Notes: generated by a model from the letters alone, not told the origin. 64,000 nucleotides of DNA from Poseidonia sp. (GCA_030829545.1 JAURAI010000001.1:70234-134233), one strand, 5' to 3'. Shown: positions 14,805 through 51,830, numbered from the stretch's first letter. Translations and numbers: made by a program.

Positions 14805-17800
14805 CTATTGCATACCGAAACGGTCGTTGCCCCCGTCGTTGCCTTCGTTGCTTCGCATGAGAAGCGCAAGAACCAGGCCCGCGGCGAGAAGAATACCGAC
14901 CCCCACGAGCGCTAGAACCGCTAGGCTCAAACCTCCACTGCCATCCACTGGGGAATCGGATTGGGAAAGTTCGATGACGGCGTCACCAAGATTGACTTCT
15001 CCGTAGATATCAAAGGCGCGCAGTGAAATCTCATGAAACCCAAGAGGTGTCCCTGCGCGAACTGAAAGCAGAGCAGTATAATTTCCATCACCTGCTACTT
15101 CATCTCCGCCATTGAGCCCGTCATCGTACATCAAAACCCACGATGTGATGCCGACTGGGGAATACACTGCCATGTTGATTTGCACCCGTTCAATACCGTC
15201 TGGGTCGCTCACAGTGACGGAATATGGAATGTTTTCGAGGTCACCTTTGTTGATGGCAAAAGGCTGTGTTACAATCGTCGGGCGGTCGTTGAGAATGGTC
15301 ACCTCAATGGATGACTCACCTCTGCCGTTGACGTGATGGGGCCCAAAGAAGGGATGTCCAACCGCCTCAGAAGTTTGCATCCACGTGCGATAGGACCCAC
15401 TGGCGCCGAGCTGGTCGGTAAGAGAGACAAGCAGACTTTGGTCACCAGGCGTCATGCCAACTGGCATTGAAGCCATCGTTGCCCAGACATTGCCACTCTT
15501 GTTCAACGAGATCATCGGACCACCGTATTCCCGAAGATCCAGATTCACACTTTCTACACCGTGACCGTCGTATGCCTCGATGTTCAGAACGATGGATTGG
15601 CCCCGCTCGAGAGTCGAGGGGACCAATTCAACCGAGGTCATGCGGGGTGCTTGATTGACCACGAGAATGGAGCCTGAAGCGGAACTGCTTGCTCCAAAAG
15701 CATCGCTTGCTGTGACATTGAGAACCACGTCTCCAACCTCCAACCCTTGGACGACGATGGCAGTTGTAAAGACATCATCACCGACCGCCAAATCGCCTTC
15801 AAGCCCTCGGTCGTTGAGGGTTACGATGTCACCGCCAATTGGGCGCAAGTCAACTTCAACCGTTTCGAGGTTCCATTCTGAATCTTGAACGACAACTTCG
15901 AGATGGGCGATGCTACCCCCTTCTCCGAGAATGAGTCCTTCTTGCAAGCGAAGTTCACCGATCACAGGTGGAGAATTCTCGTCTTCACTCACAATGGAAG
16001 GCGACAGCACACGCTCGAGGTATTGCGATTCGACCACGGTCACCGTTTCATTTGATTCACCAAATGGAATTGACAAGGTGCGTTCCGTGCTGGAGAGGAG
16101 GCCCTGAAGTGGACCCACTGAAACGATGGTTCCAGAGGCCTGTCCTGATTCACCCGACCCACCATAGGAACCAGACCATTCGATCACCGAGAGGTTGTGC
16201 CCGTCTCGAGTGTCAATGCGAGGTATGCCTGCGCTGACCGTCAGCGTCAATCCATCCTGCTCGTCCAAACGCAGTCGGTCATGTTGAATCATGGGAATCG
16301 GCATGAGGCCGGTTTCACGGCCAACGGTCAAATCCCCCAAGCCATCTTCGGCTTGGGGAGCACTCGCATTTTGCTGAATTGGACTGCGTTCGGGTCGCTC
16401 ATCACCTTCCGATGCATCGGCTCCAGTTTCTCTCCAAACAAGGCGGACGGTACGGTTATCCCAATCGGAATTCACAACTTGGTAGTCCCAAGTTTCATTG
16501 TGCGTAGCGCCAAGCCCAGCACCGTCAAAGAAATTGCCGCCGTTAATACCGGTGATGTTGAACCAGGATTCTTGATAGATGACATTCACCATGAACACTT
16601 CTTCTGTTGCATTGGCTTGAAGCCCGGTCTCTTCAATTCCACGAAGGACGCCAAACGTACCCTGAACATCTCCTGAGAGCGTTCCGTCCACGTGGAGGTC
16701 ATCAATCAGTGTCGTACCGTTGACGATTTTGGTGTGGAGGTCCAGAATGCTTCCGTTGACCATGACCGACGCATTTTCATCTTGATCTTCAAAACCAAAA
16801 GTTCCACTGCCGTACAACTCTTCATGGTGTTGGATGCGAACACCCTCTTCCCAGTGCTCAAGCGTTGTGAATCCGTCCAATGAGACATCCAAACGGGTGC
16901 CATCGTCGATGAGAACGAAGTCTGCCATGGCTTCAAATTGTGTGCGCTGAAGAATGCGTTCACCGTCTACATCGTGATATTGGAAGTAGAATACCGAGAG
17001 TTCACCGTCGATATTGAGACTCGAGTTGTCGTCATCCTCTGAAACATTGAGGTCACCAGTTGCTTCGAGAAGGAGACTTTCTTCAATCACGCCTTCAAAC
17101 AAGGAACGATTCAGATGGGCTTGTGATACATCAGCATGAATCACCGTAACGGTTTCCCCGTCGAGAACGGTTGTATCCAATGAGCCGTACCCACGGGCAT
17201 CAAAGATTTGGGAGGTAAGAATACCTCCAACGATCGTTTCGTTTTTCCAGAGTTGAGTGAAGACGAGATCGAGGTCGGTTTGTCCATCATCGGTTGATTC
17301 CAATGTTTGGAAGCTCCCGTTCCCAAGTTCCCAAGAATTGAGGACTTCACCGGTACGCTGTTGCCATCCCTGTCCGTCAAAGACCAGAGAAAAACGTTGT
17401 TCACCCTCTTCAGTGGTGTAGTTTTGGTCCATGGACCACGATGTTGAAAGCAAGACTTCGTGGTCATCCATGGGTTGATTCCAAACACCTACCACCATGC
17501 TGCGTTCTTTTGAAACACTTATCGGCATCGTGTTGTGGCTGGTAATGTCCACGCCCAAATCGATGGTATCACCCCATTGGAGGCTCGTGTTGAAGGTCAA
17601 CAGGGCCGTTCGCATCCCGTCCTCATGGCCCCACTCGAGTTGATGGTCCGTATCGAGAGCGACTTGGTCGCGTTGATGAAGCATGTTGATGTCCAAGCCG
17701 TAGGTTCCATTGTCCGAAAAAGTCAGCAGATAGGCGTGTTCGTTGGCACCATTACCGCTGGGCAACCAGTGGGTGTTGATGTCCACAGACGGAGCAGTAG

Positions 17801-17882
17801 CCTCTTCTGCTTGAATCGGCATTGTTGAAAGGATGAACATGCAAAGAAGACCAATACAAAGGCCTCGCCGCATGCTGTTCAT
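14805..17882 (-). CDS. Large secreted cell-surface glycoprotein (1025 aa) with an N-terminal signal peptide, C-terminal TM anchor and numerous N-x-S/T sequons
   Basis: Signal peptide MNSMRRGLCIGLLCMFILSTMPIQA. C-terminal anchor LSLAVLALVGVGILLAAGLVLALLMRS followed by a short charged tail. The rest is beta-rich and low in Cys. Confidence 0.5.
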   Translation of the reverse strand: MNSMRRGLCIGLLCMFILSTMPIQAEEATAPSVDINTHWLPSGNGANEHAYLLTFSDNGTYGLDINMLHQRDQVALDTDHQLEWGHEDGMRTALLTFNTSLQWGDTIDLGVDITSHNTMPISVSKERSMVVGVWNQPMDDHEVLLSTSWSMDQNYTTEEGEQRFSLVFDGQGWQQRTGEVLNSWELGNGSFQTLESTDDGQTDLDLVFTQLWKNETIVGGILTSQIFDARGYGSLDTTVLDGETVTVIHADVSQAHLNRSLFEGVIEESLLLEATGDLNVSEDDDNSSLNIDGELSVFYFQYHDVDGERILQRTQFEAMADFVLIDDGTRLDVSLDGFTTLEHWEEGVRIQHHEELYGSGTFGFEDQDENASVMVNGSILDLHTKIVNGTTLIDDLHVDGTLSGDVQGTFGVLRGIEETGLQANATEEVFMVNVIYQESWFNITGINGGNFFDGAGLGATHNETWDYQVVNSDWDNRTVRLVWRETGADASEGDERPERSPIQQNASAPQAEDGLGDLTVGRETGLMPIPMIQHDRLRLDEQDGLTLTVSAGIPRIDTRDGHNLSVIEWSGSYGGSGESGQASGTIVSVGPLQGLLSSTERTLSIPFGESNETVTVVESQYLERVLSPSIVSEDENSPPVIGELRLQEGLILGEGGSIAHLEVVVQDSEWNLETVEVDLRPIGGDIVTLNDRGLEGDLAVGDDVFTTAIVVQGLEVGDVVLNVTASDAFGASSSASGSILVVNQAPRMTSVELVPSTLERGQSIVLNIEAYDGHGVESVNLDLREYGGPMISLNKSGNVWATMASMPVGMTPGDQSLLVSLTDQLGASGSYRTWMQTSEAVGHPFFGPHHVNGRGESSIEVTILNDRPTIVTQPFAINKGDLENIPYSVTVSDPDGIERVQINMAVYSPVGITSWVLMYDDGLNGGDEVAGDGNYTALLSVRAGTPLGFHEISLRAFDIYGEVNLGDAVIELSQSDSPVDGSGGLSLAVLALVGVGILLAAGLVLALLMRSNEGNDGGNDRFGMQ

Positions 17883-32785: not shown

Positions 32786-32896
32786 CTTCCGAGTCAGACG
32801 GTACCGTTTGTTTGGAAGGCTGAGCCGTCGACACTCTCGAATCAAGGTCTGTCAAATCATTGCACCAATAACGGTAAAAAAGGAACATACCAACTT

Positions 32897-35056
32897 GTGT
32901 TTATGTGGACGGATGAACAACTGGCAGCGCAAGGGTGGACGAATGAGCAGATAGCAACCTATCGGGCTGAAGAGGCATCACAAGTGGTCAATGCCGTCAC
33001 TGATGGTGTGATTCCTGAAGCCATCAATGGTGAGGTGGCACTTCCCGAGACTGCATCGCCTGTGCTCCAAGAAACCTTTGAGGCTCGCATAAAGGGAGAT
33101 ATCCCGAACATCAATTCTACCTCAATTTCTGCAATCTTGTTAGTAGCCATGCTTGTGCTGGTACCATTTTCACTCTACTCGATTTCCAACGCAGAGGGTA
33201 CTCAAGGCCCACCGGGCGAAATTGGGACCGCTGGTACCAATGGGAGTGATGGTTCAAGTTTCCATCTTGTGCCATCTTTGGACGGCCTACCAGCTTGCGA
33301 TACATCTCTCAACAATCAAATCTTCTTCATAGCAGCCGACGCAGGGTTCCAAGTTTGCCAAAACAATGTTTGGACAGAGATCGACTTGACCGGGCAATCT
33401 GGACTCAATGGCACAGATGGCGCCAGTGGTCAAAATGGAACTGATGGACAAGATGGGGCCAACGGTCAAAATGGAGCTGATGGACAAGACGGGGCCGATG
33501 GCCAAAATGGGGCTGATGGACAGGACGGGGCCAACGGTCAAACATCACTCATGTCCACAAGCTTCGAAGCCCCCGGGGCGAATTGCCCCACGGGCGGTAC
33601 GAGAGTGGTGACTGGAATCGATGATAACGGCAACAATGCTTTATCCACTGATGAGATTGACGATACAATCTTCATTTGCAACGGTGAGAATGGCAACGAT
33701 GGAGCCAATGGTGCTGATGGTTTGGATGGTGCTGATGGCGTGGATGGTACGAACGGTAGTTCTACTACCACAATGATGGTTGCACGTCTTTCTGTTGCAC
33801 CAGCATACTTAGGATGCGGCGGTGTTGGGCAATTACTTCAACAAGGACTCGATGATGGTTCAGGTAATGGAATCGCACAGAATGGTATTCTTGAGTCAGG
33901 TGAAATAATTTCAAGTTCACTTATCTGCACCACATTCGTCGTCAATCAAGTTGAAGACCTCAACCCTGGTGCTACCGGCAGTAACCCCGCAGATTTCGTC
34001 ACCATCAACTCGACATTGTATTTCACGGCAAACAATGGCACTGCAAACGGTATTTGGTCAATGAACGCGAGCGGTAATATCTCGTTGGAGTACAGTGGTT
34101 CTGCACTGGGCCTGCGCGCTATTGGTTCCCAATTGATGTTTTCAGGACAAGGCCTTTCTCTTGACGTAGAACCATATGTTTACGATATATCGAACGGTAC
34201 TGCATGGCAAATCGCAGATATCTTCCCGGGGGCCTCTGGGAGTTTTGCGGGTGAATTCACGCTGATCGGCACAACCGTGTTTTTCTCTGCACGGGACAGT
34301 GCAGGCGTGTATGACCTTTGGGCGTATGATACCGTCAACTTCACGGTATGGAAACAGGTTGCAAACATTCAACCAACGGGATTGATTGCGGTTAATTCTG
34401 ATCTGTATTTCTCAGCGGGTCCAAACAATGGGAATGTCGAATTATGGAAGCATGAAACAGCCACAAACGCCACATTCATGGTGAAGGACATCAATCCTGG
34501 ATTGCTCTCTTCTTCGCCACAGCACCTCGCGCTGATGGGAACGACAATCTACATGTCTGCAAATGCGGGCACGACCTACGGAACTGAATTGTATGCATAC
34601 GAGACAACGAACAACTCGACATGGCTCGCAGCAGACATTCGACCCGGATTTGCAGGTAGTTCGCCATCAGAATTGGTCATCCTTGGAACGCGAATTTACC
34701 TCCAAGCAACATCGGGTTCATTTTTCGAAATGTGGGCTTATGAAACTACGAACAATTCATTCTGGGAGGTCACCAATATACAATCAACGTCCGGATTAGG
34801 TGGGCCAACCGAGTTAACCGTTCGCGGTTACACAGTATTCTTCGCAGCAGATGATGGAACAACTGGAGAAGAATTGTGGGCTCATCATTCAATCAATGAA
34901 ACGACTTGGCAAGTTATTGATTTGAATCCTGGGTCTGGTGGCCTCATTTACAAAGTCCATGCTCACGAAGGCAATGTTTACTTTTCAGGCGATGATGGGG
35001 TGGAGGGCATTGAATTATGGCGTCTAATTTTCTCACGAACCGTGAGTTTTGTTTGA
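32897..35056 (+). CDS. Membrane-anchored surface protein with collagen-like G-X-Y triple-helix repeats and C-terminal ELWxxDGT-type beta-propeller repeats
   Basis: An N-terminal TM helix, then (GxN/DG)n tracts GQNGTDGQDGANGQNGADGQDGADG and NGENGNDGANGADGLDGADGVDGTNG. These are followed by at least 7 repeats of the form ...LYFSA.DG..G.ELW..E..N.T.. seen directly in the translation. Confidence 0.55.
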   Translation: MFMWTDEQLAAQGWTNEQIATYRAEEASQVVNAVTDGVIPEAINGEVALPETASPVLQETFEARIKGDIPNINSTSISAILLVAMLVLVPFSLYSISNAEGTQGPPGEIGTAGTNGSDGSSFHLVPSLDGLPACDTSLNNQIFFIAADAGFQVCQNNVWTEIDLTGQSGLNGTDGASGQNGTDGQDGANGQNGADGQDGADGQNGADGQDGANGQTSLMSTSFEAPGANCPTGGTRVVTGIDDNGNNALSTDEIDDTIFICNGENGNDGANGADGLDGADGVDGTNGSSTTTMMVARLSVAPAYLGCGGVGQLLQQGLDDGSGNGIAQNGILESGEIISSSLICTTFVVNQVEDLNPGATGSNPADFVTINSTLYFTANNGTANGIWSMNASGNISLEYSGSALGLRAIGSQLMFSGQGLSLDVEPYVYDISNGTAWQIADIFPGASGSFAGEFTLIGTTVFFSARDSAGVYDLWAYDTVNFTVWKQVANIQPTGLIAVNSDLYFSAGPNNGNVELWKHETATNATFMVKDINPGLLSSSPQHLALMGTTIYMSANAGTTYGTELYAYETTNNSTWLAADIRPGFAGSSPSELVILGTRIYLQATSGSFFEMWAYETTNNSFWEVTNIQSTSGLGGPTELTVRGYTVFFAADDGTTGEELWAHHSINETTWQVIDLNPGSGGLIYKVHAHEGNVYFSGDDGVEGIELWRLIFSRTVSFV
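33395..33545 (+). repeat. Tandem 18-bp direct repeats (ggacaagatggggccaac / ggtcaaaatggagctgat units) encoding the collagen-like tract
   Basis: Seen in the sequence: about 8 near-identical 9/18-nt units in frame. Confidence 0.6.
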
Positions 35057-37616: not shown

Positions 37617-39647
37617 ATGAAGCACATGACCATGATTCAGGTTACACTACCGGACGGTACGGTCAACGAATACGCTTCAGGAATCACCTGTGCAGAAGTC
37701 ATTACTGATGCACTTGGAAAGAAACACGGATGCCTCGCTGCGAAAGTGGATGGTATGGAATACGACATGTCGCATGAATTGGACATGAATTGCTCGGTTG
37801 AGGGCATCAAATCTGATTCTGAAGATGGCATCCACATCCTTCGCCATTCCGCTGCCCACCTCCTCGCTCAAGCGGTCATGGAATTGTATCCTGGAGCCCT
37901 GCCGACCATTGGCCCTGCTATCGACCGTGGGTTCTACTATGATTTTGCAATGGAGCCCATCACAGAGGGAGACCTCAAGAAAATCGAAAAGAAAATGCAG
38001 GAATTGGCCCGCAGAAACTTCACGGTTGAACGAGTTGAACTGGATCAAGATTCGTTGAGGGAGCACTTTGAACACAACCCCTACAAACTTGAAATCATTG
38101 ATGATAAGTTGGAAGCAGGCGACGGTTCAACCATTTACAAGCAAGGCGAATGGTACGACCTCTGCCTTGGACCACACGTTCCCAATACCTCTCGGTTGAT
38201 GTTTGTCAAACTCACTTCCGTTTCCTCTGCTTACTGGCGAGGCGACCAAGACCGAGAGCAACTCGTTCGCATCTACGGTTTGGTCGAACCAAGCAAAGAT
38301 GCACTCAAGCAAACGCTGCACAGGATGGAGGAGGCAAAGAAACGCGACCACCGCAAACTCGGCAAGGACCTCCAACTCTTCCACATTGACGAGGAGGTTG
38401 GCCAAGGCCTCATCATGTGGACGCCAAGAGGGGCGATTATCCGTCAAGAATTGCAGGATTTCATTTCACACCACCTCCGTCGCCAAGGCTACCAGCAGGT
38501 GTTTACCCCGCACATTGGGAAATTGGATTTGTACCGCACCTCCGGTCATTTCCCCTACTACCAGGACTCGCAATACCCCCCTCTCGTTGAACGCGACTTG
38601 ATGAAGAAACTCGCTGATGAAGGTTGCACCTGCGGTGAATTGTCGAATCTGATGAAGACAGGCGACATCGACGGCTACATGCTCAAACCGATGAACTGCC
38701 CTCATCACGTCAAAATCTACGCCAGTCAAGCTCGTTCCTACCGCAATCTGCCACTGCGTTTGGCTGAATTCGGCACCGTCTACCGATGGGAACAATCGGG
38801 TGAGATCTCTGGCATGACCCGAGTTCGTGGCTTTACTCAGGACGATGCCCACCTTTTCGTAACTGAAGACCAAATCTCTCAGGAAGTGCTTGGCTGCATT
38901 GAGTTGGTTCAAATCATCTTTGACAAACTCGGAATGACAGATTACCGTGTTCGTGTGGGCCTGCGTGACCCAGATTCAACCAAGTATGTGGGCGACCCTT
39001 CTGCTTGGGAAAAAGCCGAAGATGCGTGCCGGAATGCAGCGGCTTCTCTGGGAGTTGACTGGTCTGAAGAAGAGGGTGAAGCAGCCTTCTATGGTCCGAA
39101 AATCGACTTTGTTGTCAAGGACGTCATTGGCAGAGAATGGCAACTCGGGACGGTGCAGGTAGACTACAATCTGCCCGAACGTTTCGATTTGACATACAAG
39201 GGAAGCGATGGAGAACTTCACCGTCCAGTCATGATTCATCGCGCCCCATTTGGCTCCATGGAACGGTTCTGTGGCGTTCTTATCGAGCATTTTGCCGGCC
39301 GATTCCCCACTTGGCTCACGCCCACGCAATGTCATATCATCACCATTTCCGAGAAGCACAAGGCCTACGCTGCGGAAGTTGAAGAAGCCCTCAAAGAACG
39401 TGGAATCCGTGTTGAAATGGATGATGGAGACGACACGGTGGGGAAGAAAATCCGCACCCATCGCAAACTTCAGCCGGCCTACATGGTGATTCTTGGCGAT
39501 GGTGAGATGGAAGGAAGAACCGTCAGCCTACGAGCCCGTAATGGTGACCAAGTTGCAGATCTCGGCCTTGAACAATTCATCGAAGACCTTCAATCGGAAA
39601 TCAATGAAAAGGTGAGTCAGCCATCGCTTGTACCGCCTTCATCGTGA
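37617..39647 (+). CDS. thrS: Threonyl-tRNA synthetase
   Basis: N-terminal TGS domain (MIQVTLPDGT), class II motifs and anticodon-binding domain. 676 aa. Confidence 0.95.
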   Translation: MKHMTMIQVTLPDGTVNEYASGITCAEVITDALGKKHGCLAAKVDGMEYDMSHELDMNCSVEGIKSDSEDGIHILRHSAAHLLAQAVMELYPGALPTIGPAIDRGFYYDFAMEPITEGDLKKIEKKMQELARRNFTVERVELDQDSLREHFEHNPYKLEIIDDKLEAGDGSTIYKQGEWYDLCLGPHVPNTSRLMFVKLTSVSSAYWRGDQDREQLVRIYGLVEPSKDALKQTLHRMEEAKKRDHRKLGKDLQLFHIDEEVGQGLIMWTPRGAIIRQELQDFISHHLRRQGYQQVFTPHIGKLDLYRTSGHFPYYQDSQYPPLVERDLMKKLADEGCTCGELSNLMKTGDIDGYMLKPMNCPHHVKIYASQARSYRNLPLRLAEFGTVYRWEQSGEISGMTRVRGFTQDDAHLFVTEDQISQEVLGCIELVQIIFDKLGMTDYRVRVGLRDPDSTKYVGDPSAWEKAEDACRNAAASLGVDWSEEEGEAAFYGPKIDFVVKDVIGREWQLGTVQVDYNLPERFDLTYKGSDGELHRPVMIHRAPFGSMERFCGVLIEHFAGRFPTWLTPTQCHIITISEKHKAYAAEVEEALKERGIRVEMDDGDDTVGKKIRTHRKLQPAYMVILGDGEMEGRTVSLRARNGDQVADLGLEQFIEDLQSEINEKVSQPSLVPPSS

Positions 39648-42183
39648 GTGTATTATCATGGCACCAGGTATCATTCAAGGCTTTTCTTTTGCCATGATTG
39701 GGCCCCTTTTCTTTGCCATCCTGACGGCTTGGTTTTTTTGGGACAAGGTCGTCCCCCGGCAACTGAAAGGACTCCAAGTGGCCTTTCAAACTGGAAACCG
39801 AACCTACGAAGTTCATCGAGTCACATCAACGGTTGAGGACGTCAAGGACCTGCTCGCTCGCCGAGGAACTCGCTTTGGAGTCGTCTCATACCTCATGGCT
39901 CTCACTGGAAGCCTCATTTTATTGTTTGAATTTACAACGTTCAGAGTCGAACTTTCCGAAGGCTATCATGCGCCTTCGGTGGCTCTTGCGCTGATTCTCA
40001 TCATGCTTCCTGCGGTCGTATCGAGTGGAACATCCTTGGGCGCTCAAGTGATTCGTCCTCTGGGAACCAACCGCGCAACGCTGCAGAACAATACACGTGC
40101 ACGAAACATCGCTTATGTTGCCCTGACCCTTTCGTGGCTTTTCTTGGCCGGAATGGTTGGATTGGTCGTGGATGCACAAGGTGGGTCACAAACACAAAGT
40201 GTCAGCATCGCAGCTTTCATCGCCTTCAGTCCAGCAGTTCTTGCCTATGGACGAATTCTTGGTTCATCGTGGAATGCCCTGAAGCAATCCTCGCAACAGA
40301 TTGGAAAAGGGAAGCCATCACCCTTCCACAATCACATTCCAAACGCACGTCAGCAATTCATCGCTCAAGTCGTTCATCTCAACTTGGTAGCCATGCCATT
40401 TGTTGCTCTTAATACACTCATCTCACTGCTCTTCTTGCTGTATAACCCGGACATGTTCATCCATTCCGACCGCGTTCTTGAACTTCCAGAATACCGACTC
40501 CAAAGCACCTACATGGAAGAAGGCGGGTTGCTTGGTTTCTGGCTCATTGAACTCTTTTCAAACATACCACAGGCGGGTATTCGAGTACCTATTGTGACCT
40601 CCCTGCTCTTGTTTTTGTTGCTCAACGTGGCGGCCATCGGATTCCTCTTTGTGTATGAAGTGGCCCGAATTCTTTTCCTTGACATCCAAGATGTTTCAGG
40701 AAAAGGAGGCATCCGCCTGGCAGACAGTCGTCTCTTGCGAGCCGAGCCTGTGCAGCAAGCGAACGTGTTGAATTTCTGTTTCACCGGATTTGCCGGTCAA
40801 TCCATGCTCCTGCTCGCCCTTGCGATGATCACGTTTTGGGATTCCAGTTTCCTCCCCCAAGGCAGCGCATGTGGTTCTTGGGAAGGCAGCGTATGTTCGG
40901 TTATGGAAAAGGACATGCTCGAACAATTGACGTGGATGCTCGCCTCGGGAGGTCAAATCGCATTTTTTGCAGTGTGGGCGCTCTCTTGGCGACGTTCAAA
41001 TCGACTTGATGATTTTACGTTCGATTCAACCATGGATGAAGACCGGACCAGACTTCGAGGCATCAGTGACATGATTTATCTCAAGCAGCGCCCAATCAAT
41101 GAACTCGTTGCAGGTGATGACTGGCAGACCGCACTCGACCGCTTTGAATCACATTCAATGCGCAATGAAGAACGCTTGGTCGGGTTGGACATGATACGGC
41201 AAACACAGGCGACCATGATGCTCAAGGTAGCCATCAACCGTTGGGACGATGCAGAAGAGGTCGCAGTTGACCTTCTAGCACTTCAAGGCGGACGAGATGC
41301 TCACCTCTCAAGGCTGACACTTTGTGCCGCTAGTCTGGCCCAACGCGACCTCAAAGAGGCCCGACCACGCCTCGCCCTTCTCAAGGACGATGATATCGAA
41401 GCAGTTCGCCTCAAATGGGTGGCTGCGGTATTGAATCCATCAACAAAACTCAGCCCAGAAGTCCGTTCCATGCTGAGTATTGACCCCATTACTCGGAAAA
41501 ATATCGCCATGCTACGTGAACTCAAGGAAGCACGGGTCGTAGCAGACCGACAGCGACTCAAACAGCCCACTGACCGGAGAATCTTCCTCAGTCAACTCGC
41601 ACGCATGCGGCTTGCTGGGCAGAGCGAACGCGCCCTTACGCTGCTTGAATTAGCCATGAAAGAGATGCAAGAAGAATGGGTGCACGGCACCATCGTTCAG
41701 AGTTTATTGAATTACGATGCGGGCAGAATGATGACAGCGGTTGACCTTGCTGAAAAATTACAAAAGTGCCATTCACGCAATCCGCATTTGCGAAGTGTTT
41801 TGCACCACTACGCTGATATGGGGCACACCACCTCACCCCCCTCTGAACAGTCGAAAATTGAATGGGCATTTGAGCAAGACTTGGATTGGCGTGAAAAATG
41901 GTCGGGCCATAACGTCAGCGTGCCTCCTCACATGAAGACGACAGACCTCAAAAAGCATGCATGGAGGGCCAATGCTTGGGTTGGTTTGACAAGTGAGAAA
42001 GGTTTAGCAGCTTTGCTCAAGGGCAAGCGTCAACATCAAAACCTCCCTGAAGACCTTCCTTTGTGCATCTATACGCATCTCGCTGGCCTGATGGTAACAA
42101 TCGGTGGAATGCCAGTGGATTTGGGTGTCCCCGGTACAATTCAACTCGATGATATTGAAGCAGCAAACCTGCTTGATTTGTAA
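39628..42183 (+). CDS. Large polytopic membrane protein (N-terminal ~430 aa, about 10 TM) with a ~420-aa cytoplasmic alpha-helical repeat (TPR-like) domain
   Basis: Hydropathy and helical-repeat composition only. No recognisable catalytic motif. The start is possibly ATG ~39658. Confidence 0.4.
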   Translation: MYRLHRECIIMAPGIIQGFSFAMIGPLFFAILTAWFFWDKVVPRQLKGLQVAFQTGNRTYEVHRVTSTVEDVKDLLARRGTRFGVVSYLMALTGSLILLFEFTTFRVELSEGYHAPSVALALILIMLPAVVSSGTSLGAQVIRPLGTNRATLQNNTRARNIAYVALTLSWLFLAGMVGLVVDAQGGSQTQSVSIAAFIAFSPAVLAYGRILGSSWNALKQSSQQIGKGKPSPFHNHIPNARQQFIAQVVHLNLVAMPFVALNTLISLLFLLYNPDMFIHSDRVLELPEYRLQSTYMEEGGLLGFWLIELFSNIPQAGIRVPIVTSLLLFLLLNVAAIGFLFVYEVARILFLDIQDVSGKGGIRLADSRLLRAEPVQQANVLNFCFTGFAGQSMLLLALAMITFWDSSFLPQGSACGSWEGSVCSVMEKDMLEQLTWMLASGGQIAFFAVWALSWRRSNRLDDFTFDSTMDEDRTRLRGISDMIYLKQRPINELVAGDDWQTALDRFESHSMRNEERLVGLDMIRQTQATMMLKVAINRWDDAEEVAVDLLALQGGRDAHLSRLTLCAASLAQRDLKEARPRLALLKDDDIEAVRLKWVAAVLNPSTKLSPEVRSMLSIDPITRKNIAMLRELKEARVVADRQRLKQPTDRRIFLSQLARMRLAGQSERALTLLELAMKEMQEEWVHGTIVQSLLNYDAGRMMTAVDLAEKLQKCHSRNPHLRSVLHHYADMGHTTSPPSEQSKIEWAFEQDLDWREKWSGHNVSVPPHMKTTDLKKHAWRANAWVGLTSEKGLAALLKGKRQHQNLPEDLPLCIYTHLAGLMVTIGGMPVDLGVPGTIQLDDIEAANLLDL

Positions 42184-43944
42184 TTAGATTCGTCGTCGTA
42201 GCCGTTCCATAGCAGCGTCGGCTTGAGAAAGGTGTTGAAGACATTCTTCGATTCGGCTGACGCCTAACATCTCCTCGGACAGTGCAATGGCTTCCTCACA
42301 GGCCCGTCGATCTTCATCGGTGATGGTAATACCGGCAGCTTCGCATTGATTTCGAAGGACCTTCCACTCATCCATCACGTAATCGTAGAGTTCGAGGGCT
42401 TCACCACTTGCTCGTCCTTCTTTGTCCAAGTCCGTCGTCATGCGTTCCAAGAGCATGCCCGCATGAGACCAGGACCGGTCGTCAGCCGCTTGTTCTATTT
42501 CAGCGAGCGCCTTTGCCCACGTATCCTCGTCATCTCGGCCTTCATACCGCTTGACCAGTTGTTTTCGCTGCTTGAGGGCACGAAGGACATCGTCCATCGC
42601 CGCACGCTCGCGTTGCAAGGTTCGTACCACACCATCAGCGAGACCAATCGCTTGACTGGCATTGCCTTCTTCAAGAGCGTTTTCTGCTTGCTTGAGGCGT
42701 TGTTTTCCTTCGTTCAAATCCAATCCGTCGGCTTGGTCTATCTGGCGACGGGCTTCTTTGATGGACTCAAGAGCACGGTCTTGTGCTTCACCTTCTGCTT
42801 CAAGTTGTCCAGGTATGACGACGGCAAATTCAAAGGCCTCACGGGGTTGTTCCTTCACCAATTTTTCTTTGGCATCCTTGAGAAGGTCTCGCAAGGTTGT
42901 GATGCCGTCTCCTTTCTTTCCGTCCAGTGCTCGAACGGCCTCAGTGATGGCAACCTCTGCTTGGCTCCACCATTCGATAACTTCGCCAGCTCGTTTCTTG
43001 GCTTGTCGGAACAATTGTTCACCTTCACGCAGTGAACCCAACCCAACTTCTCGCACTCCCATGTCGTAAGCCTTTCTCGGGCGTTTGACAACTGGGGCGA
43101 TTGATTCAGCTCGTTCAATGGCCTCGAGAGCGTCATGACGAATGATTTCAACATCGCCTGCGAAGGAAAGCGCTCGTTCCATGTCTTCTTCACTATCGTC
43201 AAGAAGGCGCATGCCATAGGTGGGGTCAAGGTGACCTTCTTCTTTGGCAGTGGTCAACAAACTTGCCGCCTGAGCGACCGCTGCTCCTTGTGCCTTCAAC
43301 TCAAGAAGGCGTCCTTCCAAACGGTCCAATCTCCTCTGGAATGCTTTTCGTTCTACCTTTTGATCGTCACCAACCGACCACGAATACACCGTATCGCCGC
43401 AGGCTAACACCGCAAAAGTAGCGGCCAGCCCACCTGCCAATGTGGTGAAAGATTCAACCTGAATGAGGACCAGTGCGACGGCTGATGCGCTGCCAATGCC
43501 CGTGAGAATGGAACGAAAGCGCAAGACTCCAAAGTGTCCACGAAGGGTAGTAACAGCCATCTTTCGAGCCACAAAGGCGGCGAAGAGGACGAGAACACTT
43601 CCTGCCGATGCCTGATTCGAGCCAGTATCAAGGCCCAAGGCTCCAATCACCAGAAGCACGGGCCACGCCAAAGCAGTGGATGAGCCCAAACGTGTACGGG
43701 CGGAGGGGTCGTCCAACACCAAATCTTGAAGGAAAATACCCCACAATATCAGAGCGAAGGGTGGGCCGAAATTAGTCAATACAACGCCTTCTCCTTGCGC
43801 CATACTCTTGAGCGTTGGCCAAGCCAACCAGACTGCACAGCCTAGAATGATAAAAGCAGTATACATGGCCATGGATTCAACGCGCTTCGTGCGTTGCAAG
43901 CGCTCGGCTTGAATCGCTGAATCAGCATCAGCCCATGTGACCAT
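42184..43944 (-). CDS. Membrane protein (about 8 TM N-terminal) with a long C-terminal coiled-coil domain
   Basis: Hydrophobic N-terminus followed by ~350 aa of heptad-like E/A/L/R/K-rich sequence. It is convergent with and directly abuts the preceding gene. Confidence 0.4.
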   Translation of the reverse strand: MVTWADADSAIQAERLQRTKRVESMAMYTAFIILGCAVWLAWPTLKSMAQGEGVVLTNFGPPFALILWGIFLQDLVLDDPSARTRLGSSTALAWPVLLVIGALGLDTGSNQASAGSVLVLFAAFVARKMAVTTLRGHFGVLRFRSILTGIGSASAVALVLIQVESFTTLAGGLAATFAVLACGDTVYSWSVGDDQKVERKAFQRRLDRLEGRLLELKAQGAAVAQAASLLTTAKEEGHLDPTYGMRLLDDSEEDMERALSFAGDVEIIRHDALEAIERAESIAPVVKRPRKAYDMGVREVGLGSLREGEQLFRQAKKRAGEVIEWWSQAEVAITEAVRALDGKKGDGITTLRDLLKDAKEKLVKEQPREAFEFAVVIPGQLEAEGEAQDRALESIKEARRQIDQADGLDLNEGKQRLKQAENALEEGNASQAIGLADGVVRTLQRERAAMDDVLRALKQRKQLVKRYEGRDDEDTWAKALAEIEQAADDRSWSHAGMLLERMTTDLDKEGRASGEALELYDYVMDEWKVLRNQCEAAGITITDEDRRACEEAIALSEEMLGVSRIEECLQHLSQADAAMERLRRRI

Positions 43945-47181: not shown

Positions 47182-50100
47182 GTGAATACTATGTTTGAAC
47201 TACCCAAAGGAACGCCTGTTACCAAAGAGATTTCACTCGCTGAGGGTCATCTACAGCCCTTCGCCCACGGCGCTATTACAAGTTACATCGGTCGACGAAA
47301 AACACCGAGTGCCCATCGTTTGGTGCGTGGTGGACGCATCGTTGGTTGGATTGCGGAAGATAAGGACAAGGGCGTGATGCTTGGAGGTAGCGAAGCCCGT
47401 ATTCAATTGGAAGCCATCGAAGCCGAAGGAAAACTTCGCCTGGTTGGAAACAGGTACACTTTGAGTGGCCTTGGAGGGATTGCTGAGATCATTCCAGAGG
47501 CCTTTGAACACCAAGCAGACCGGCAGGGGTTGAGAGCCAGCACCAATTACGTTGCACGTTTACTGGCAAGGGACCTCTCGATGGTTGTAAAGACGCTTAT
47601 TCTTGATCCAACCGTGCGAGGCGCTATTGCTATTGACGGAGGCATGCTCATCGACGCTGCAGGTGACCTGCCTGGCTTTGGAGAGGAAGAAGCACTCGCA
47701 TCTCACGTGTATGACCTTCTTTCAAACATGCGAATGGAGGACCGCCCTCATCTCGCTGTCAAAGGACAAGGTCACTGGATTTTGCATACCGAAGAGGGAG
47801 CGCTCTTGCTCGCACAAAGCGGAGATATTGCACTTGCAGCTTGGACTGAACGTGATGCGAACCATGCTCGATTACTTTCTGCCACATCAACCGCTTTATC
47901 CGGCGATGTAGCATCTGCGGGTGAAGATGGAACAAAACTCCCTGAAGGGTTTACCCTGCGAGAAGGCCGTGGTGGTCCAGACGCCATTGTTTCCATGTTG
48001 AAGGCAGGCCTCCAAGAAGAAGTAACCGGCCATATTCAGTCGGGAAGTTCAAGCAAAGCTGTTTCATTGGTGCTGTCACAAGGTGTACCCGTTGCACTCT
48101 GGGCGCCTTCCGTCGACGACGAGACAGAAGCACTCCGATTGCTTACCGAGCCAAAGCGAAAGGTCCGTCTTGTTCGGCTACCTGCGGGCACCATCGTTAC
48201 CGCTCGTTCTGGGACAATCGCCTCGTTTTCTCTTACTGGTTTCATTGACCAGTTAGCCACCATCCGCACGCGTTCAGAAGCACGCCAGGAATCGTTGAGA
48301 GCCGCCCTTACCGACATGCTAGGATTCGAAGCAGGTATTGAGCAATTGCGGACTGAACGTGCAAAGTTAGCGTTCAAAACCGACGGCATGGAATCAGCCG
48401 TTCCCCTTCAGGTCATGCAAGAACAAGCCGTCTCGGCTGTGGATGAAGGATTGCGTCGCCGCCTGGAGAAATCGGAACAAACCGTGTCGGCATTGAACGC
48501 CTCCATCGCTGTACTCGAGGGTAAAATCAAGCAGTTAGAAACCAAGAAAGATGCAGCACAAATTGTTGCAAGAGAGGCCAGTGAAACACGACAAGAGCAC
48601 ACTGTCGCAATGGAAAACGCTCATGCACAACTCAACACGATGCAGGTTGACCTTGCACAATCAAGAGCCACTTCAGAAGAAGCAACGGCAAGGGCTGAAC
48701 GGTTGGTTCGAAGAGTGAATGAACTCGAGCATCAAGTCAGCGAGCGTGCGGCAGAATTAGCAAAAGCCATCGGTGAAGCAAGTTCGAGCGCAGAATTACA
48801 AAGCATGATCGAAGAACTCTCCCTCAAGGAAGCAGAGTTGCAAGCCAATTTGGGCGAAGGAAGTCAACGATTGACGACCATACGCCAGCAAAGCGATGAT
48901 GAAGAACGCCGATTGCGAGTTTTGACCGAACAAGTCAGCACCACTCGCGAGCGACATGCTCGGGCTCAATCCGACCTTCTCAGCCTGCAGGAACAGGTCC
49001 ACGTCCAACAACTTGAACTTGAAGCGGCTCGATTGGAGGAAAAGAAATCCCGAGGCCACGCTGACGAGGACCGCCGACGTCGTGCTGAAGAAGAAGCGCG
49101 ACGCTCCAACACCGAGGCTGAACTACGTGAATTGATGAATGAACGACGGCAAGTCCTCCGAGAATTGGGTGACTTGGGTGCCCGAAGAGGGCATGCTGAA
49201 GCAGAATTAGCCTCGCTTGTCGAGAAGGCCACCGACTTAGCCACCGCTCACGAGGAAGCCCTTGCCGATATACAAGAAGCAGAGCGCCTGCGTGCCCGGC
49301 TTGCCGAAGAACCACTTGCTCAGGCACTCCTCGACGATAACAACACCTTCCAGGGCCTTGGCCCCGTGTTGGAGCGACTTGAACACGCTCGAGAACTCGG
49401 ATATTCTGTGACGATGCTCGACAGGGCTGTTGAGCGAGCCTTGCAGGTGATTCAATCAACGGTTGATCAAGTTGCCGCAACACCTCGTCACCTGCTTTCT
49501 TCGGAAGTGATGACGCTCTTGGAACGACAGGTCCCTCAAACTGCAGGAGCCGTGCGAGGACTCGCACGCTGGTCAGTTCAGCAGCGTCTTGAACTCCAAC
49601 TTGGAGAAACAGTCAATCACCTTGTGCTTGACCTCGAACACCTTCTCGAGGATTACGACCGCTCGATTACAATGTTACGCCGAATCCGAAACGTGCTTGA
49701 ACAAATCGAGCGATTGGGGGCACCTGAGCATGAAGTCCACGCCCTCATGGCCAATTGTCAACGCCCAGAGGCGCTACCGAGTCTCGCCCTTGGAACGCGT
49801 AAGTTGATTCAAGTTGCTCTTGATGACATCTACCTTGAGGCAGACCAGCGCGATGCGGGAGAAGCGATTGGACTGGAAGAAACCGCCCGGGTCCTCGAAG
49901 AACTCATCACGCAACTGGATGCTTCAGGACTGACTGACGGCCGTCCACGCGGCATGCTTTGGGAATTCCAGCGGGATGGGTTGCTGCCCTTCGAGCGAGA
50001 TGCCATTCCTGCTGAACAACGTCTTCCAGTCGACGAAGGAATGCTGCACGCTTTGGAACCACACCTCCTTGCATCAGAGGCCTTAGAGGCCGTAGAGGCA

Positions 50101-50364
50101 CCTGCCGCAGAAGCCGTCGACAGTGACGGGTGGTCTGAACTTCCTGCGCCGAGCGACGATGCTGTCCATGCGGCGGTTGAATCTTCATCCCCTGCCACGA
50201 CCTCCCATGATGACCTGGACGACGAGAGAGCGAGACTCGAAGCAGAATTGGCCCGCATTGATGCAGAATGGAGTCATCGTGACGTACCCGCAGGCAACAC
50301 GCCTGTTCCTGCTGATGCTGCCCTCACAGACCTTGAGGCCCGGCTTTCAAACATTGACTTTTGA
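47182..50364 (+). CDS. Giant (1060 aa) protein: 2-3 N-terminal Roadblock/LC7-like modules + ~500-aa coiled coil (SMC/myosin-tail-like) + acidic C-terminal domain
   Basis: Modules at ~aa 1-110, 115-215 (RGAIAIDGGMLIDAAGDLPGFGEEEALASHVYDLLSNM) and 225-330. Residues ~380-900 are almost pure heptad E/A/R/L/Q sequence. The C-terminus is D/E-rich. Confidence 0.5.
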   Translation: MNTMFELPKGTPVTKEISLAEGHLQPFAHGAITSYIGRRKTPSAHRLVRGGRIVGWIAEDKDKGVMLGGSEARIQLEAIEAEGKLRLVGNRYTLSGLGGIAEIIPEAFEHQADRQGLRASTNYVARLLARDLSMVVKTLILDPTVRGAIAIDGGMLIDAAGDLPGFGEEEALASHVYDLLSNMRMEDRPHLAVKGQGHWILHTEEGALLLAQSGDIALAAWTERDANHARLLSATSTALSGDVASAGEDGTKLPEGFTLREGRGGPDAIVSMLKAGLQEEVTGHIQSGSSSKAVSLVLSQGVPVALWAPSVDDETEALRLLTEPKRKVRLVRLPAGTIVTARSGTIASFSLTGFIDQLATIRTRSEARQESLRAALTDMLGFEAGIEQLRTERAKLAFKTDGMESAVPLQVMQEQAVSAVDEGLRRRLEKSEQTVSALNASIAVLEGKIKQLETKKDAAQIVAREASETRQEHTVAMENAHAQLNTMQVDLAQSRATSEEATARAERLVRRVNELEHQVSERAAELAKAIGEASSSAELQSMIEELSLKEAELQANLGEGSQRLTTIRQQSDDEERRLRVLTEQVSTTRERHARAQSDLLSLQEQVHVQQLELEAARLEEKKSRGHADEDRRRRAEEEARRSNTEAELRELMNERRQVLRELGDLGARRGHAEAELASLVEKATDLATAHEEALADIQEAERLRARLAEEPLAQALLDDNNTFQGLGPVLERLEHARELGYSVTMLDRAVERALQVIQSTVDQVAATPRHLLSSEVMTLLERQVPQTAGAVRGLARWSVQQRLELQLGETVNHLVLDLEHLLEDYDRSITMLRRIRNVLEQIERLGAPEHEVHALMANCQRPEALPSLALGTRKLIQVALDDIYLEADQRDAGEAIGLEETARVLEELITQLDASGLTDGRPRGMLWEFQRDGLLPFERDAIPAEQRLPVDEGMLHALEPHLLASEALEAVEAPAAEAVDSDGWSELPAPSDDAVHAAVESSSPATTSHDDLDDERARLEAELARIDAEWSHRDVPAGNTPVPADAALTDLEARLSNIDF

Positions 50365-50618
50365 GGTGGCCCATAATGACCGAGGCAACCACGCTCATGG
50401 GACGAACTGAAGAGCGAGAGAAAGCATACCCGTTGTGGATTGAGCGGGTTCTTCTCCTTGTTGCAGGAGTCGTTGTTATTCTCTATTCTCCAAAGATAAA
50501 CGCATCTATTGACCATGCGTGGATGGGGCCATTCGTGGCCTACATCGCTGTTCCTTTGGCATTGCTCGCTGCTGTTGAATTGATGGGCCGTTTTGTCCAA
50601 GGACGGCAAGGCTCATAA
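50361..50618 (+). CDS. Small 2-TM membrane protein, overlapping the stop of the giant coiled-coil gene (operon partner)
   Basis: 4-nt overlap. Two hydrophobic helices (LLLVAGVVVILY, VAYIAVPLALLAAV). Confidence 0.4.
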   Translation: MRWPIMTEATTLMGRTEEREKAYPLWIERVLLLVAGVVVILYSPKINASIDHAWMGPFVAYIAVPLALLAAVELMGRFVQGRQGS

Positions 50619-51830
50619 TTGACTGAAATCCTTTGACGCAGGCTCTGGTTCAACCAGATTGCTACGTGATTGTATCAATCCAATGACACGCTGCCAAGGG
50701 ATAAAGAAACGGAGAACAGCCATCAAGCTCAAGAATAACAAAGCTGAGATGACCAAGCCATAGGTCAATGTCAATTCAATCGATTCAGAGACTTGACCCG
50801 CCCATTGACTTCCCGTGGTATCCGATACAATAGTCAACAAGACCTTGTGGAAGCCAAGAGCCACCATCGTGGCAATACCGGTTAATCCGAGGAACAGGAA
50901 AGTGTGTCTCAAGTGCGTGTTGAGGACGTTGTCCATTTGGCGGACATATTCCGGGTCACGCTTGCATGATTCAGGGAGTCGGAAAGCGTATTCGAGGTTG
51001 CGAATAACGCCGTAACTTGCTTCCTGGAAAACCATGATCAAAACGGCGATGAGGATGAGATTGAATTGCTCTTGCGTCACCAATTTAAGCCCGAAGAGAC
51101 CGATGGTTGGATCTGAAGTTTGGCTCTCAAGGACGGCAAGTGTTCCTCCGTAGGACCCCAATTGCGATTTGATGAGCGGGAAGGTCAGGATGGCATGTAT
51201 TCCCAAGAACAGGAGGGTGAATCCAATCGCCCAGGCGATGGAGCGGCGGGACAGACCCCATATTCCTCGAGTGCCCATGATAACGGGGAGGAGATAAATG
51301 AACATGATGAGCAGTGACATGATCATCAATAAGGGCCACTGAAGTGTTTGCAATTCTGAATCAGTGGGCAAGCGTAAATCAAAGGAAAAGAGCATGCCGG
51401 CCAACCACGAGAGAGTCAGACGACCGATCAGCAAAACGATGAGGCCGATAATGAAACCCAATTTGATACGTTGCTGGACCTTTGGTATTTGGAATGCGAG
51501 GAAGGCCATTGCACCACCGAGGCTCAGTCCGAGGACCATGGGGACAAAGAAACGGGCAAGGCCTGAGCGACCTTCTCCAGTGAGCCAATCACCCAAGGGT
51601 AATTGGTCGGAGATGAGCAATTCAATGGTATCGAAAAGAATCGTGTGGTCGATGGAGCCAACAACATAGGTAGAGACCACTTCGAGGTACATTCCAATCA
51701 AGGCTACCGTTGCAACCACTTGCAGTGTAATGATTTGCCATTGGCGACGGAGGTTCTTGAGATGAAGCGTACGTGGACGCGCCGTTCCTTCAAGGAGGAC
51801 ATCTGACTGAAGACCAACTTCACCTGCCAT
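50613..51830 (-). CDS. Polytopic membrane protein (about 10 TM), terminal gene of the DUF4350-DUF58 cluster
   Basis: Hydropathy. Its start sits 2 nt after the upstream DUF58 gene. Confidence 0.45.
   Translation of the reverse strand: MAGEVGLQSDVLLEGTARPRTLHLKNLRRQWQIITLQVVATVALIGMYLEVVSTYVVGSIDHTILFDTIELLISDQLPLGDWLTGEGRSGLARFFVPMVLGLSLGGAMAFLAFQIPKVQQRIKLGFIIGLIVLLIGRLTLSWLAGMLFSFDLRLPTDSELQTLQWPLLMIMSLLIMFIYLLPVIMGTRGIWGLSRRSIAWAIGFTLLFLGIHAILTFPLIKSQLGSYGGTLAVLESQTSDPTIGLFGLKLVTQEQFNLILIAVLIMVFQEASYGVIRNLEYAFRLPESCKRDPEYVRQMDNVLNTHLRHTFLFLGLTGIATMVALGFHKVLLTIVSDTTGSQWAGQVSESIELTLTYGLVISALLFLSLMAVLRFFIPWQRVIGLIQSRSNLVEPEPASKDFSQL

Follow-up and report, generated by a model that had tools for sequence, protein, structure and literature searches.

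Surface proteins in which a (Gly-X-Y)n stalk made without hydroxyproline (Hyp) carries a globular head are known from bacteria, among them Streptococcus Scl1/Scl2, Bacillus anthracis BclA and Legionella Lcl. Their Gly-X-Y runs are encoded by tandem repeats, whose number depends on the strain. In collagens XIII, XVII, XXIII and XXV, gliomedin and MARCO/SR-A, a cytoplasmic N-terminus and a signal-anchor transmembrane (TM) helix are followed by an interrupted collagenous ectodomain and a C-terminal head, which in gliomedin is an olfactomedin beta-propeller. In archaea, SlaB of the Sulfolobales and tetrabrachion of Staphylothermus are oligomeric rods anchored in the membrane; their length is defined, and they keep an outer protein layer at a constant distance. 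The gene described here lies in a 64,000-nucleotide (nt) stretch of a Poseidonia sp. assembly (GCA_030829545.1 JAURAI010000001.1:70234-134233), hereafter called the window. It encodes a protein with a predicted membrane anchor, three collagen-like Gly-X-Y tracts and a C-terminal beta-propeller of the ELWxxDGT type.

Adhesion domains of Marine Group II (MGII) archaea, to which the host is assigned, have been discussed in general terms (PMC4511931, PMC6461757), and a cluster of MGII "collagen-like cell surface proteins" ranked among the most highly expressed MGII mRNAs in a metatranscriptome, its members being classed as intrinsically disordered by predictors (PMC5069720). The family is widespread and automatically annotated, and MGII collagen-like surface proteins are in print; the acidic, Pro-poor chemistry of the tracts and the compensation between their lengths are the two points worth follow-up.

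The product is probably a membrane-anchored surface protein forming a collagen-like trimeric rod with ELW propeller heads, i.e. a spacer of defined length. From N- to C-terminus, it comprised a cytoplasmic motif, a variable acidic linker, the TM helix, tract 1, a Cys-pair domain, tract 2, a DUF7151 domain, tract 3, a third Cys-pair domain and an 8-bladed propeller (Table 1; residues are numbered from the GTG at 32897, giving 719 residues). Homology searches returned 1,170 matches at E < 1e-5, including about 85 full-length orthologs of the same architecture (51-100% identity, 692-747 amino acids, aa). In the proposed mechanism, the conserved cytoplasmic motif and the single TM helix would anchor the protein in a type II (N-in) orientation. 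Outside the cell, a collagen-like triple helix would most likely form from the Gly-X-Y tracts of three chains, with three small node domains of the disulfide type as interruptions; one of the three is a clear DUF7151 with an EF-hand-like loop. The resulting segmented rod of about 27-28 nm would hold three 8-bladed propellers off the membrane as likely ligand-binding (adhesive or receptor) heads. Imperfect 9-, 18- and 36-nt repeats would gain or lose whole units in frame and let tract lengths drift between strains, and selection appears to keep the sum of tracts 2 and 3 near constant, which would make the stalk a spacer of defined length rather than a switchable one. Ligand binding away from the membrane, as in adhesion or capture, is a plausible function and the most economical reading of this layout.

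The length compensation was apparent among 67 orthologs. Tract 1 was fixed at 21 residues, whereas tract 2 varied between 39 and 66 residues and tract 3 between 12 and 36, the length being a multiple of three residues in 66/67 orthologs for tract 2 and 67/67 for tract 3. The lengths of tracts 2 and 3 were inversely correlated (r = -0.86), and the variance of their sum was only 9.4 (mean 74.7 +/- 3.1 residues), compared to 35.6 for tract 2 and 27.1 for tract 3. As a control for shared ancestry, orthologs were greedily paired by identity in the non-collagen region, yielding 33 independent sister pairs. Fifteen of these differed in both tracts, in opposite directions in all 15 cases (two-sided sign test, p ~6e-5), and the sister-pair contrasts of tract 2 against tract 3 correlated with r = -0.85. 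Alignment-free run counts gave the same totals (17+9, 20+6, 22+4, 13+12 and 16+10 triplets). With the standard collagen helix rise of 0.286 nm per residue, the collagenous stalk would measure about 27-28 nm with a standard deviation of about 1 nm, if the tracts do form a triple helix. Total stalk length thus looks conserved although its tracts turn over, and the compensation between tracts 2 and 3 therefore describes a stalk that is mutable in its parts and constrained in its sum, the opposite of a diversifying or switchable one.

At the DNA level, tract 2 contained an imperfect tandem repeat. The original prediction had described near-perfect 18-nt units, but identity between successive 18-mers was no more than 50-78%; the true period proved to be 36 nt, and the longest exact run at offset 36 was 13 nt. 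The window was compared with three environmental variants (L083, L084 and L085; ~97% nucleotide identity over 2.1 kb). The only indels among the four were one 36-nt unit in tract 2 (33460-33495), missing in L083 and L084, and one 9-nt unit in tract 3 (33713-33721), missing in L084 and L085, both in frame and within the tracts. The comparison of repeat number between strains that had been proposed with the prediction thus gave a length difference of exactly these two units. The predicted length-variable stalk holds for individual tracts between strains, but at the family level compensation keeps the total near constant. The predicted phase variation has to be abandoned, as all indels were multiples of 9 nt and frameshifted database copies were scattered singletons. 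An exact 28-mer anchor for further alleles of the same strain matched nothing in JGI metagenome contigs, and a protein-based metagenome scan gave only orthologs of ~60% identity.

Five database fragments (P0121, P0133, P0139, P0140 and P0141, on contigs of 9-720 kb) were frameshifted or truncated copies, each a singleton, with breaks scattered over the N-terminus, the TM helix, tract 1 and tract 2. They probably reflect errors in sequencing or assembly rather than pseudogenes or phase variants. The alternative-frame open reading frames (ORFs) that cross the Gly-X-Y repeat in the window, 33408..33611 (+) and 33287..33541 (-) (e.g. MAQMAPVVKMELMDK...), are by-products of this repeat, and P0141 terminated in the same out-of-frame peptide.

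The triple helix is favoured by the strict periodicity of the tracts. A perfect Gly-X-Y run was kept in 58/67 orthologs for tract 2 and in 66/67 for tract 3, though X and Y residues and codons had diverged, and the Gly columns were invariant or nearly so across homologs. The Pro-containing tract 1, of fixed length and adjoining the membrane, also counts for a triple helix, and would fit the N-to-C zipper folding proposed for vertebrate transmembrane collagens. The constraint on total tract length is a further point in favour. The Pfam Collagen model (PF01391) matched three stretches of the protein with 52 bits (cut-off 27.2). A Foldseek search of the PDB with the model of the stalk and nodes (residues 120-350; 33254..33946) placed trimerisation domains of collagens XV/XVIII at 9 of the top 11 positions; the matches to these multiplexins (3hsh, 3n3f, 9bnb and 9bnc) covered 50-60 columns with probabilities of 0.69-0.99 and target-normalised TM-scores of 0.45-0.67. 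The multiplexin trimerisation domain is likewise a small beta-rich domain beside a collagen helix, but the node of the window protein lies between collagen tracts and has a conserved Cys pair. This fold match may weakly point to trimerisation and is a coherent lead, not a result. A further PDB profile match, to the "spindlefibril/axialfibril" entry 8zxl (E = 8e-40), was discarded as a generic and uninformative GAPGSQ low-complexity match, and a literature search on 8zxl gave nothing relevant.

A number of observations weigh against a triple-helical, adhesive protein. Pro was scarce, at 4.9% of X and 1.5% of Y positions, with Thr at 17% of X, and Y positions were dominated by Asp (42%) and Asn (27%), with Lys and Arg together at ~0.3%. 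In host-guest peptides, Asp and Asn are unfavourable at Y, and none of the stabilising compositions (Pro/Hyp-rich, Thr-rich or charge pairs) was found in the tracts. Lys-Asp/Glu salt bridges have been proposed as a stabiliser of collagen-like proteins across all domains of life (PMC11923368); given the near-absence of Lys and Arg, they cannot form here. The multiplexin matches were not significant (E = 0.3-0.9), at 10-16% identity and for a model spanning all three node domains, and for node domain 1 neither a Pfam match nor any hit of its sequence profile in the PDB was obtained. In the AlphaFold2 model of the monomer, the tracts had a predicted local distance difference test (pLDDT) score of <50 to ~70, as expected of a monomer run and therefore uninformative for the tracts. 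The sequences behind the length compensation are metagenome-derived, and short-read assemblies could miscount repeats. Across 10 loci, no conserved neighbour or operon partner of the gene was found, shared flanking ORFs having no Pfam match; with neither a ligand nor a partner gene or conserved operon found, the word adhesion rests on analogy. Speculatively, shielding by seawater Ca2+/Mg2+, glycosylation or a low habitat temperature might offset the unfavourable composition.

NCBIfam TIGR04534 (ELWxxDGT_rpt) matched six stretches of the protein with 141.1 bits (cut-off 65), and with the Pfam Collagen score this upholds the predicted archaeal surface protein combining collagen-like and ELWxxDGT-type repeats, with an in-frame tract conserved across hundreds of homologs. 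AlphaFold2, run on an 85-sequence alignment, gave pLDDT ~85-96 for residues ~290-717 and eight four-stranded blades, in line with the "at least 7 repeats" announced from the sequence. Each blade had 38-49 residues, with tandem repeats of ~47 residues. The literal ELWxxDGT signature was not found; the orthogroup had the variant ELW-x-x-[E/D]-x-x-N-x-[S/T] (blade motifs DLWAYDTVNFT, ELWKHETATNAT, ELYAYETTNNST, EMWAYETTNNSF and ELWAHHSINETT). Foldseek matches in the PDB were only generic propellers (the 7-bladed EUBREC_1955, TolB, prolyl-oligopeptidase, BamB and Kelch; identity <=16%), as were those in BFVD, and the fold therefore tells of a propeller and nothing of its ligand.

The protein had 16 N-glycosylation sequons, 15 of them in the ectodomain compared to 8.6 +/- 2.6 in composition-matched shuffles (p ~0.015). 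The enrichment that had been described as dense is real, but moderate and overstated, as about half of these sequons occupied the D-G-T position of the blades. Seven N-x-S/T sequons were located at this position in blades 1-7, and those of blades 2-7 were kept in 51-67 of the 67 orthologs. They may be glycosylated, or may be a mere variant of the structural D-G-T turn, which would count against a glycosylated head.

The N-terminal part carried the predicted anchor. In the cytoplasmic motif, the W, D, L, G, W, Q and I positions were invariant, with pLDDT 85-88. It had no Pfam family and was missing from the paralogs with a lipobox; in a profile search it was matched solely by fragments from its own orthogroup, and the idea of a motif common to other architectures was rejected. 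The TM segment (~residues 77-97, after a 76-residue N-terminus; residues 73-92 in the model helix) was the single strong hydrophobic segment. The only positive charges near it (R, K) sat on its N-terminal side, and the Cys pairs and sequons lay C-terminal to it, from which an N-in/C-out orientation is inferred.

All six Cys residues, two per node, were invariant across 85 aligned homologs and may form disulfides. Node domain 1 had pLDDT 78-90 in a stalk-only model. DUF7151 (Pfam PF23657) scored 67 bits for the whole protein (cut-off 27.2) and 64 bits for residues 217-264. Its loop DDNGNNALSTDE matched the pattern D-x-[DN]-x-[DN]-x-x-[ILV]-x-x-x-E by eye, and EF-hand Pfam models had no match to the window protein at E <= 1; Ca2+ binding is inferred solely from this loop pattern and from EF-hand matches in the relative P0087, a DUF7151-rich protein in which EF-hand profiles matched inside a DUF7151 copy. 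In the third Cys-pair domain, the DUF7151 match was below threshold (16 bits, E = 0.009), with invariant C, G, D, N and E positions. Beyond the three tracts, no Gly-X-Y run of at least 5 triplets was found in any frame of the 64-kb window.

Table 1. Features of the collagen-stalk / ELW-propeller gene and its flanks. Coordinates are those of the window; functions are predicted.
Feature	Coordinates	Strand	Basis and remarks
TATA-like box GGTAAAAAAGG (GGTATAAAAGG in three strain variants)	32873..32883	+	~25 nt upstream of ATG 32903
Coding sequence, collagen-stalk / ELW-propeller protein, probably 717 aa	32903..35056	+	Homolog starts; GTC in L085
Cytoplasmic N-terminal motif MWTDEQLxxQGWTxEQIxxYR	32903..32965	+	Two W-T-x-E-Q-[LI] half-repeats; modelled as two helices
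Transmembrane helix, putative type II signal anchor (N-in, C-out)	33125..33187	+	Hydropathy 2.3, highest in the protein
Gly-X-Y tract 1, GTQGPPGEIGTAGTNGSDGSS, 7 triplets	33197..33259	+	Holds the only GPP triplet; length fixed in 67/67 orthologs
Cys-pair node domain 1 (SSFHLV..LPxCD..QIFF..F.VCQ..W..DLTG)	33260..33391	+	Cys134 and Cys154 invariant; common to lipobox-type paralogs
Gly-X-Y tract 2, 17 triplets	33392..33544	+	13-22 triplets among orthologs
Imperfect 36-nt tandem DNA repeat (GQNGADGQDGAN), 3.2 copies	33428..33542	+	Inside tract 2; units 86-89% identical
DUF7151 domain	33545..33682	+	Cys230 and Cys261 invariant; EF-hand-like loop DDNGNNALSTDE
Gly-X-Y tract 3, 9 triplets	33683..33763	+	4-12 triplets among orthologs
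Third Cys-pair domain, divergent DUF7151-like	33764..33934	+	Runs into the propeller; Cys307, Cys344; pLDDT 76-89
8-bladed beta-propeller, ELWxxDGT-type repeats	33935..35053	+	TIGR04534, AlphaFold2 model, blade alignment
Short stem-loop followed by T-rich run; possible terminator	35032..35056	+	Over the stop codon; consensus match only

In one alternative to the collagen-like rod, the Gly-X-Asp/Asn tracts are flexible, highly acidic linkers of a monomer, possibly binding Ca2+/Mg2+, whose Gly periodicity is a by-product of the 9-nt repeat unit. This is unlikely, though its probability is appreciable: the tracts are Pro-poor, lack Lys/Arg and have Asp/Asn-dominated Y positions, the Pfam Collagen match is only moderate and composition-driven, no trimer evidence was obtained, and the published MGII relatives are predicted to be disordered (PMC5069720). 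However, the Gly periodicity was held over 13-22 triplets while X/Y residues and codons diverged to 55-70% identity, for which repeat homogenisation alone is insufficient, and tract 1, which has no DNA repeat, nevertheless kept a fixed run of 7 triplets. Flexible linkers would moreover offer no obvious reason for the tight compensation of total length, and the top fold matches, if weakly, were collagen trimerisation domains. That the repeats make the gene a contingency (phase-variable) locus, with slippage switching expression or making a hypervariable stalk against viruses or grazers, is largely refuted and now seems highly improbable. The repeat-encoded tracts did differ between ~97% identical strains, the gene is located at the margin of a strain-variable islet and a few frameshifted copies are found in databases. 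Yet the units, at the identity given in Table 1 and with exact runs of <=16 nt, are poor slippage substrates, and unit sizes of 9, 18 and 36 nt mean that slippage stays in frame, as did all observed indels. Total length was constrained and not diversified, and the scattering of the frameshifted fragments as singletons fits sequencing error.

Two other readings accept the rod and differ on what it does. An abundant structural spacer or anchor of the envelope instead of an adhesin, functionally comparable to the trimeric stalk proteins of archaeal S-layers, has a minor though appreciable probability; its rod of fixed length would space an outer canopy made of, or bound to, the propellers from the membrane. 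Such a role would suit a constant total stalk length despite rapid tract turnover, which is molecular-ruler behaviour, as well as the membrane anchor with its conserved cytoplasmic motif, the very wide distribution of the orthologs and the high expression of MGII collagen-like proteins (PMC5069720), if the latter belong to this orthogroup. On the other hand, neither the closest genome nor most other Poseidoniales loci examined had the gene in their pyrG-NADK slot (a copy may lie elsewhere in those genomes), and its varying position would be unusual for an essential envelope protein; the window also has a more classical S-layer-type candidate at 14805..17882 (-), and no sign of lattice formation or high abundance was found for the window protein. 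The conserved stalk length does recall SlaB and tetrabrachion, which are likewise of defined length, but their stalks are coiled coils, not collagen-like, and lack homology to the window protein. A transmembrane receptor or sensor, which would pass a propeller ligand signal through the TM helix to a cytoplasmic partner of the N-terminal motif, appears improbable. The 21-residue motif is the most conserved N-terminal feature, is predicted as two confident helices and is specific to the orthogroup, the paralogs having a simple lipobox signal instead; however, neither a recognisable signalling domain nor a conserved neighbour gene as partner was found, signalling along a segmented 28-nm rod is hard to envisage, and the motif could instead serve membrane insertion, trimer nucleation or anchoring. 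The membrane-anchored, collagen-like spacer with ligand-binding heads is thus retained as the preferred reading.

The boldest extension of this spacer would make it the principal building block of the MGII envelope, i.e. a trimeric, Ca2+-stabilised, Pro-free ruler of ~28 nm with compensatory repeats and a glycosylated propeller canopy. It is a long shot; if true, archaea would gain their first collagen-based envelope, and triple helices a new chemical class. The archaea of Marine Group II, which are uncultured, rank among the most abundant of the surface ocean, and this family offers a concrete, widespread component of their cell surface. The Gly-X-Asp/Asn chemistry of the stalk lies outside the known rules of triple-helix stability. 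A real triple helix would widen the sequence space of collagen-like folding and provide a natural case of length homeostasis in a spacer encoded by repeats; otherwise the protein would be nothing unusual among the very numerous surface proteins with propeller heads.

Compared to bacterial collagen-like proteins, the window protein shares the stalk-and-head plan and the coding by tandem repeats with strain-dependent copy number, but has an N-terminal TM helix with a cytoplasmic motif, an ELW propeller head and an archaeal host. Its stalk is split by Cys-pair/DUF7151 nodes and built of Gly-X-Asp/Asn triplets without Pro or charge pairs, and compensation keeps its total length conserved rather than polymorphic. 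Membership in Scl1/Scl2 (NF038329/NF038330) was rejected with 36.3 bits against 325 and 27.8 against 400, as was membership in HxsA4, with a score far under the cut-off; the C-terminus (...ELWRLIFSRTVSFV) had no LPXTG. With the type II transmembrane collagens and colmedins, the protein shares its overall layout (hydropathy, model, tracts and head) by analogy only. It differs from colmedins in having 8 ELW-type blades, against 5 in olfactomedin, and in lacking a juxtamembrane coiled coil. No Pfam match indicated homology to olfactomedin or NC domains, and PDB sequence matches were confined to the Gly-X-Y repeats; the likeness to vertebrate transmembrane collagens is convergence at most. Relative to other TIGR04534 proteins, whose curated model it passed, it differs in its signature, single propeller, collagen stalk and TM anchor.

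The orthologs were very widespread in Poseidoniaceae metagenomes, and several are annotated by JGI as "ELWxxDGT repeat protein". Distant Poseidoniales paralogs combined node domain 1, collagen tracts and DUF7151 behind a short signal peptide that has a lipobox-like LAGC at its end, with canonical ELW propellers or other domains as heads; canonical ELWxxDGT copies were present in paralogs such as P0108 and P0112. These architectures fit what may be a modular family of surface stalks. The statement that collagen-like tracts are rare in archaea consequently needs qualifying, being too strong for the Poseidoniales, which carry a large family with collagen/DUF7151 stalks. Outside the archaea, bacterial relatives (P0087, P0095 and P0104, e.g. 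Myxococcota) had 12-13 DUF7151 copies alternating with Gly-X-Y runs of 4-8 triplets, an architecture of "beads on a collagen string", and P0095 carried the C-terminal domain of Legionella Lcl. The propeller by itself belongs to a very large environmental superfamily, for which a search at E <= 1e-3 gave 26,066 cluster representatives; many of these are giant proteins with multiple propellers. A viral origin was rejected, with no relatives in IMG/VR and with generic propellers as the BFVD fold matches. Literature searches for ELWxxDGT and for DUF7151 found no papers, and for TIGR04534 members no experimentally defined function or solved structure was found.

The neighbouring pyrG (CTP synthase) product was 95% identical to that of a Ca. 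Poseidoniales metagenome-assembled genome and 66-85% identical to those of other Poseidoniales, and homologs of the collagen/ELW protein bore Poseidoniaceae names. The host is, judging by these similarities, a Poseidoniaceae (MGIIa) archaeon, which confirms the archaeal origin. Surrounding genes were housekeeping genes, encoding thermosome, HMG-CoA synthase, ADH, pyrG, Sir2, NAD kinase, ThrRS, DnaK and Cdc48. In most Poseidoniales loci examined, pyrG directly adjoined the NAD kinase gene; in the closest genome (L015:3215-6340), the slot between them was occupied by a multipass membrane protein of 613 aa together with a GST-like gene, and an ortholog with 70% identity adjoined mutY, showing that the gene position differs. 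In the three ~97% identical variants, homology to the window started ~10-17 nt past the pyrG stop (~32793-32802), and the genes upstream of the ELW gene were strain-specific, i.e. a small lipobox protein in L083 (1-860) and an unrelated 219-aa protein in L085 (1-990). The slot between pyrG and the Sir2/NAD-kinase genes (window 32786..32902) was a strain-variable islet, and from its varying content and the strain-specific upstream genes it follows that the collagen/ELW gene lies at the edge of this islet.

The ORF 32897..35056 (+) encodes 719 aa when counted from the GTG at 32897. All homologs begin with MWTDEQ and the GTG reads GTC in L085, so that this start codon is not conserved and the real start is probably the ATG at 32903. 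Upstream of it, the TATA-like element GGTA[A/T]AAAAGG was kept in L083, L084 and L085, homology to the window being otherwise lost upstream of ~32795, which suggests a promoter for an independent, probably leaderless transcript. At the other end of the gene, the stem-loop was not above shuffle expectation.

Elsewhere in the window, the ORF at 14805..17882 (-) encoded 1025 aa without Pfam match, with a signal-peptide-like N-terminus, a C-terminal TM anchor, 21 N-x-S/T sequons and a very acidic composition (D+E 158 compared to K+R 45); its product looks like a candidate classical archaeal S-layer or surface glycoprotein. Other large ORFs without a Pfam family encoded an acidic soluble protein of 1060 aa (47182..50364, +), an 851-aa protein with ~5 TM segments (39628..42183, +), a 586-aa protein (42184..43944, -) and multipass membrane proteins of 565 aa (1628..3325, -) and 405 aa (50613..51830, -).

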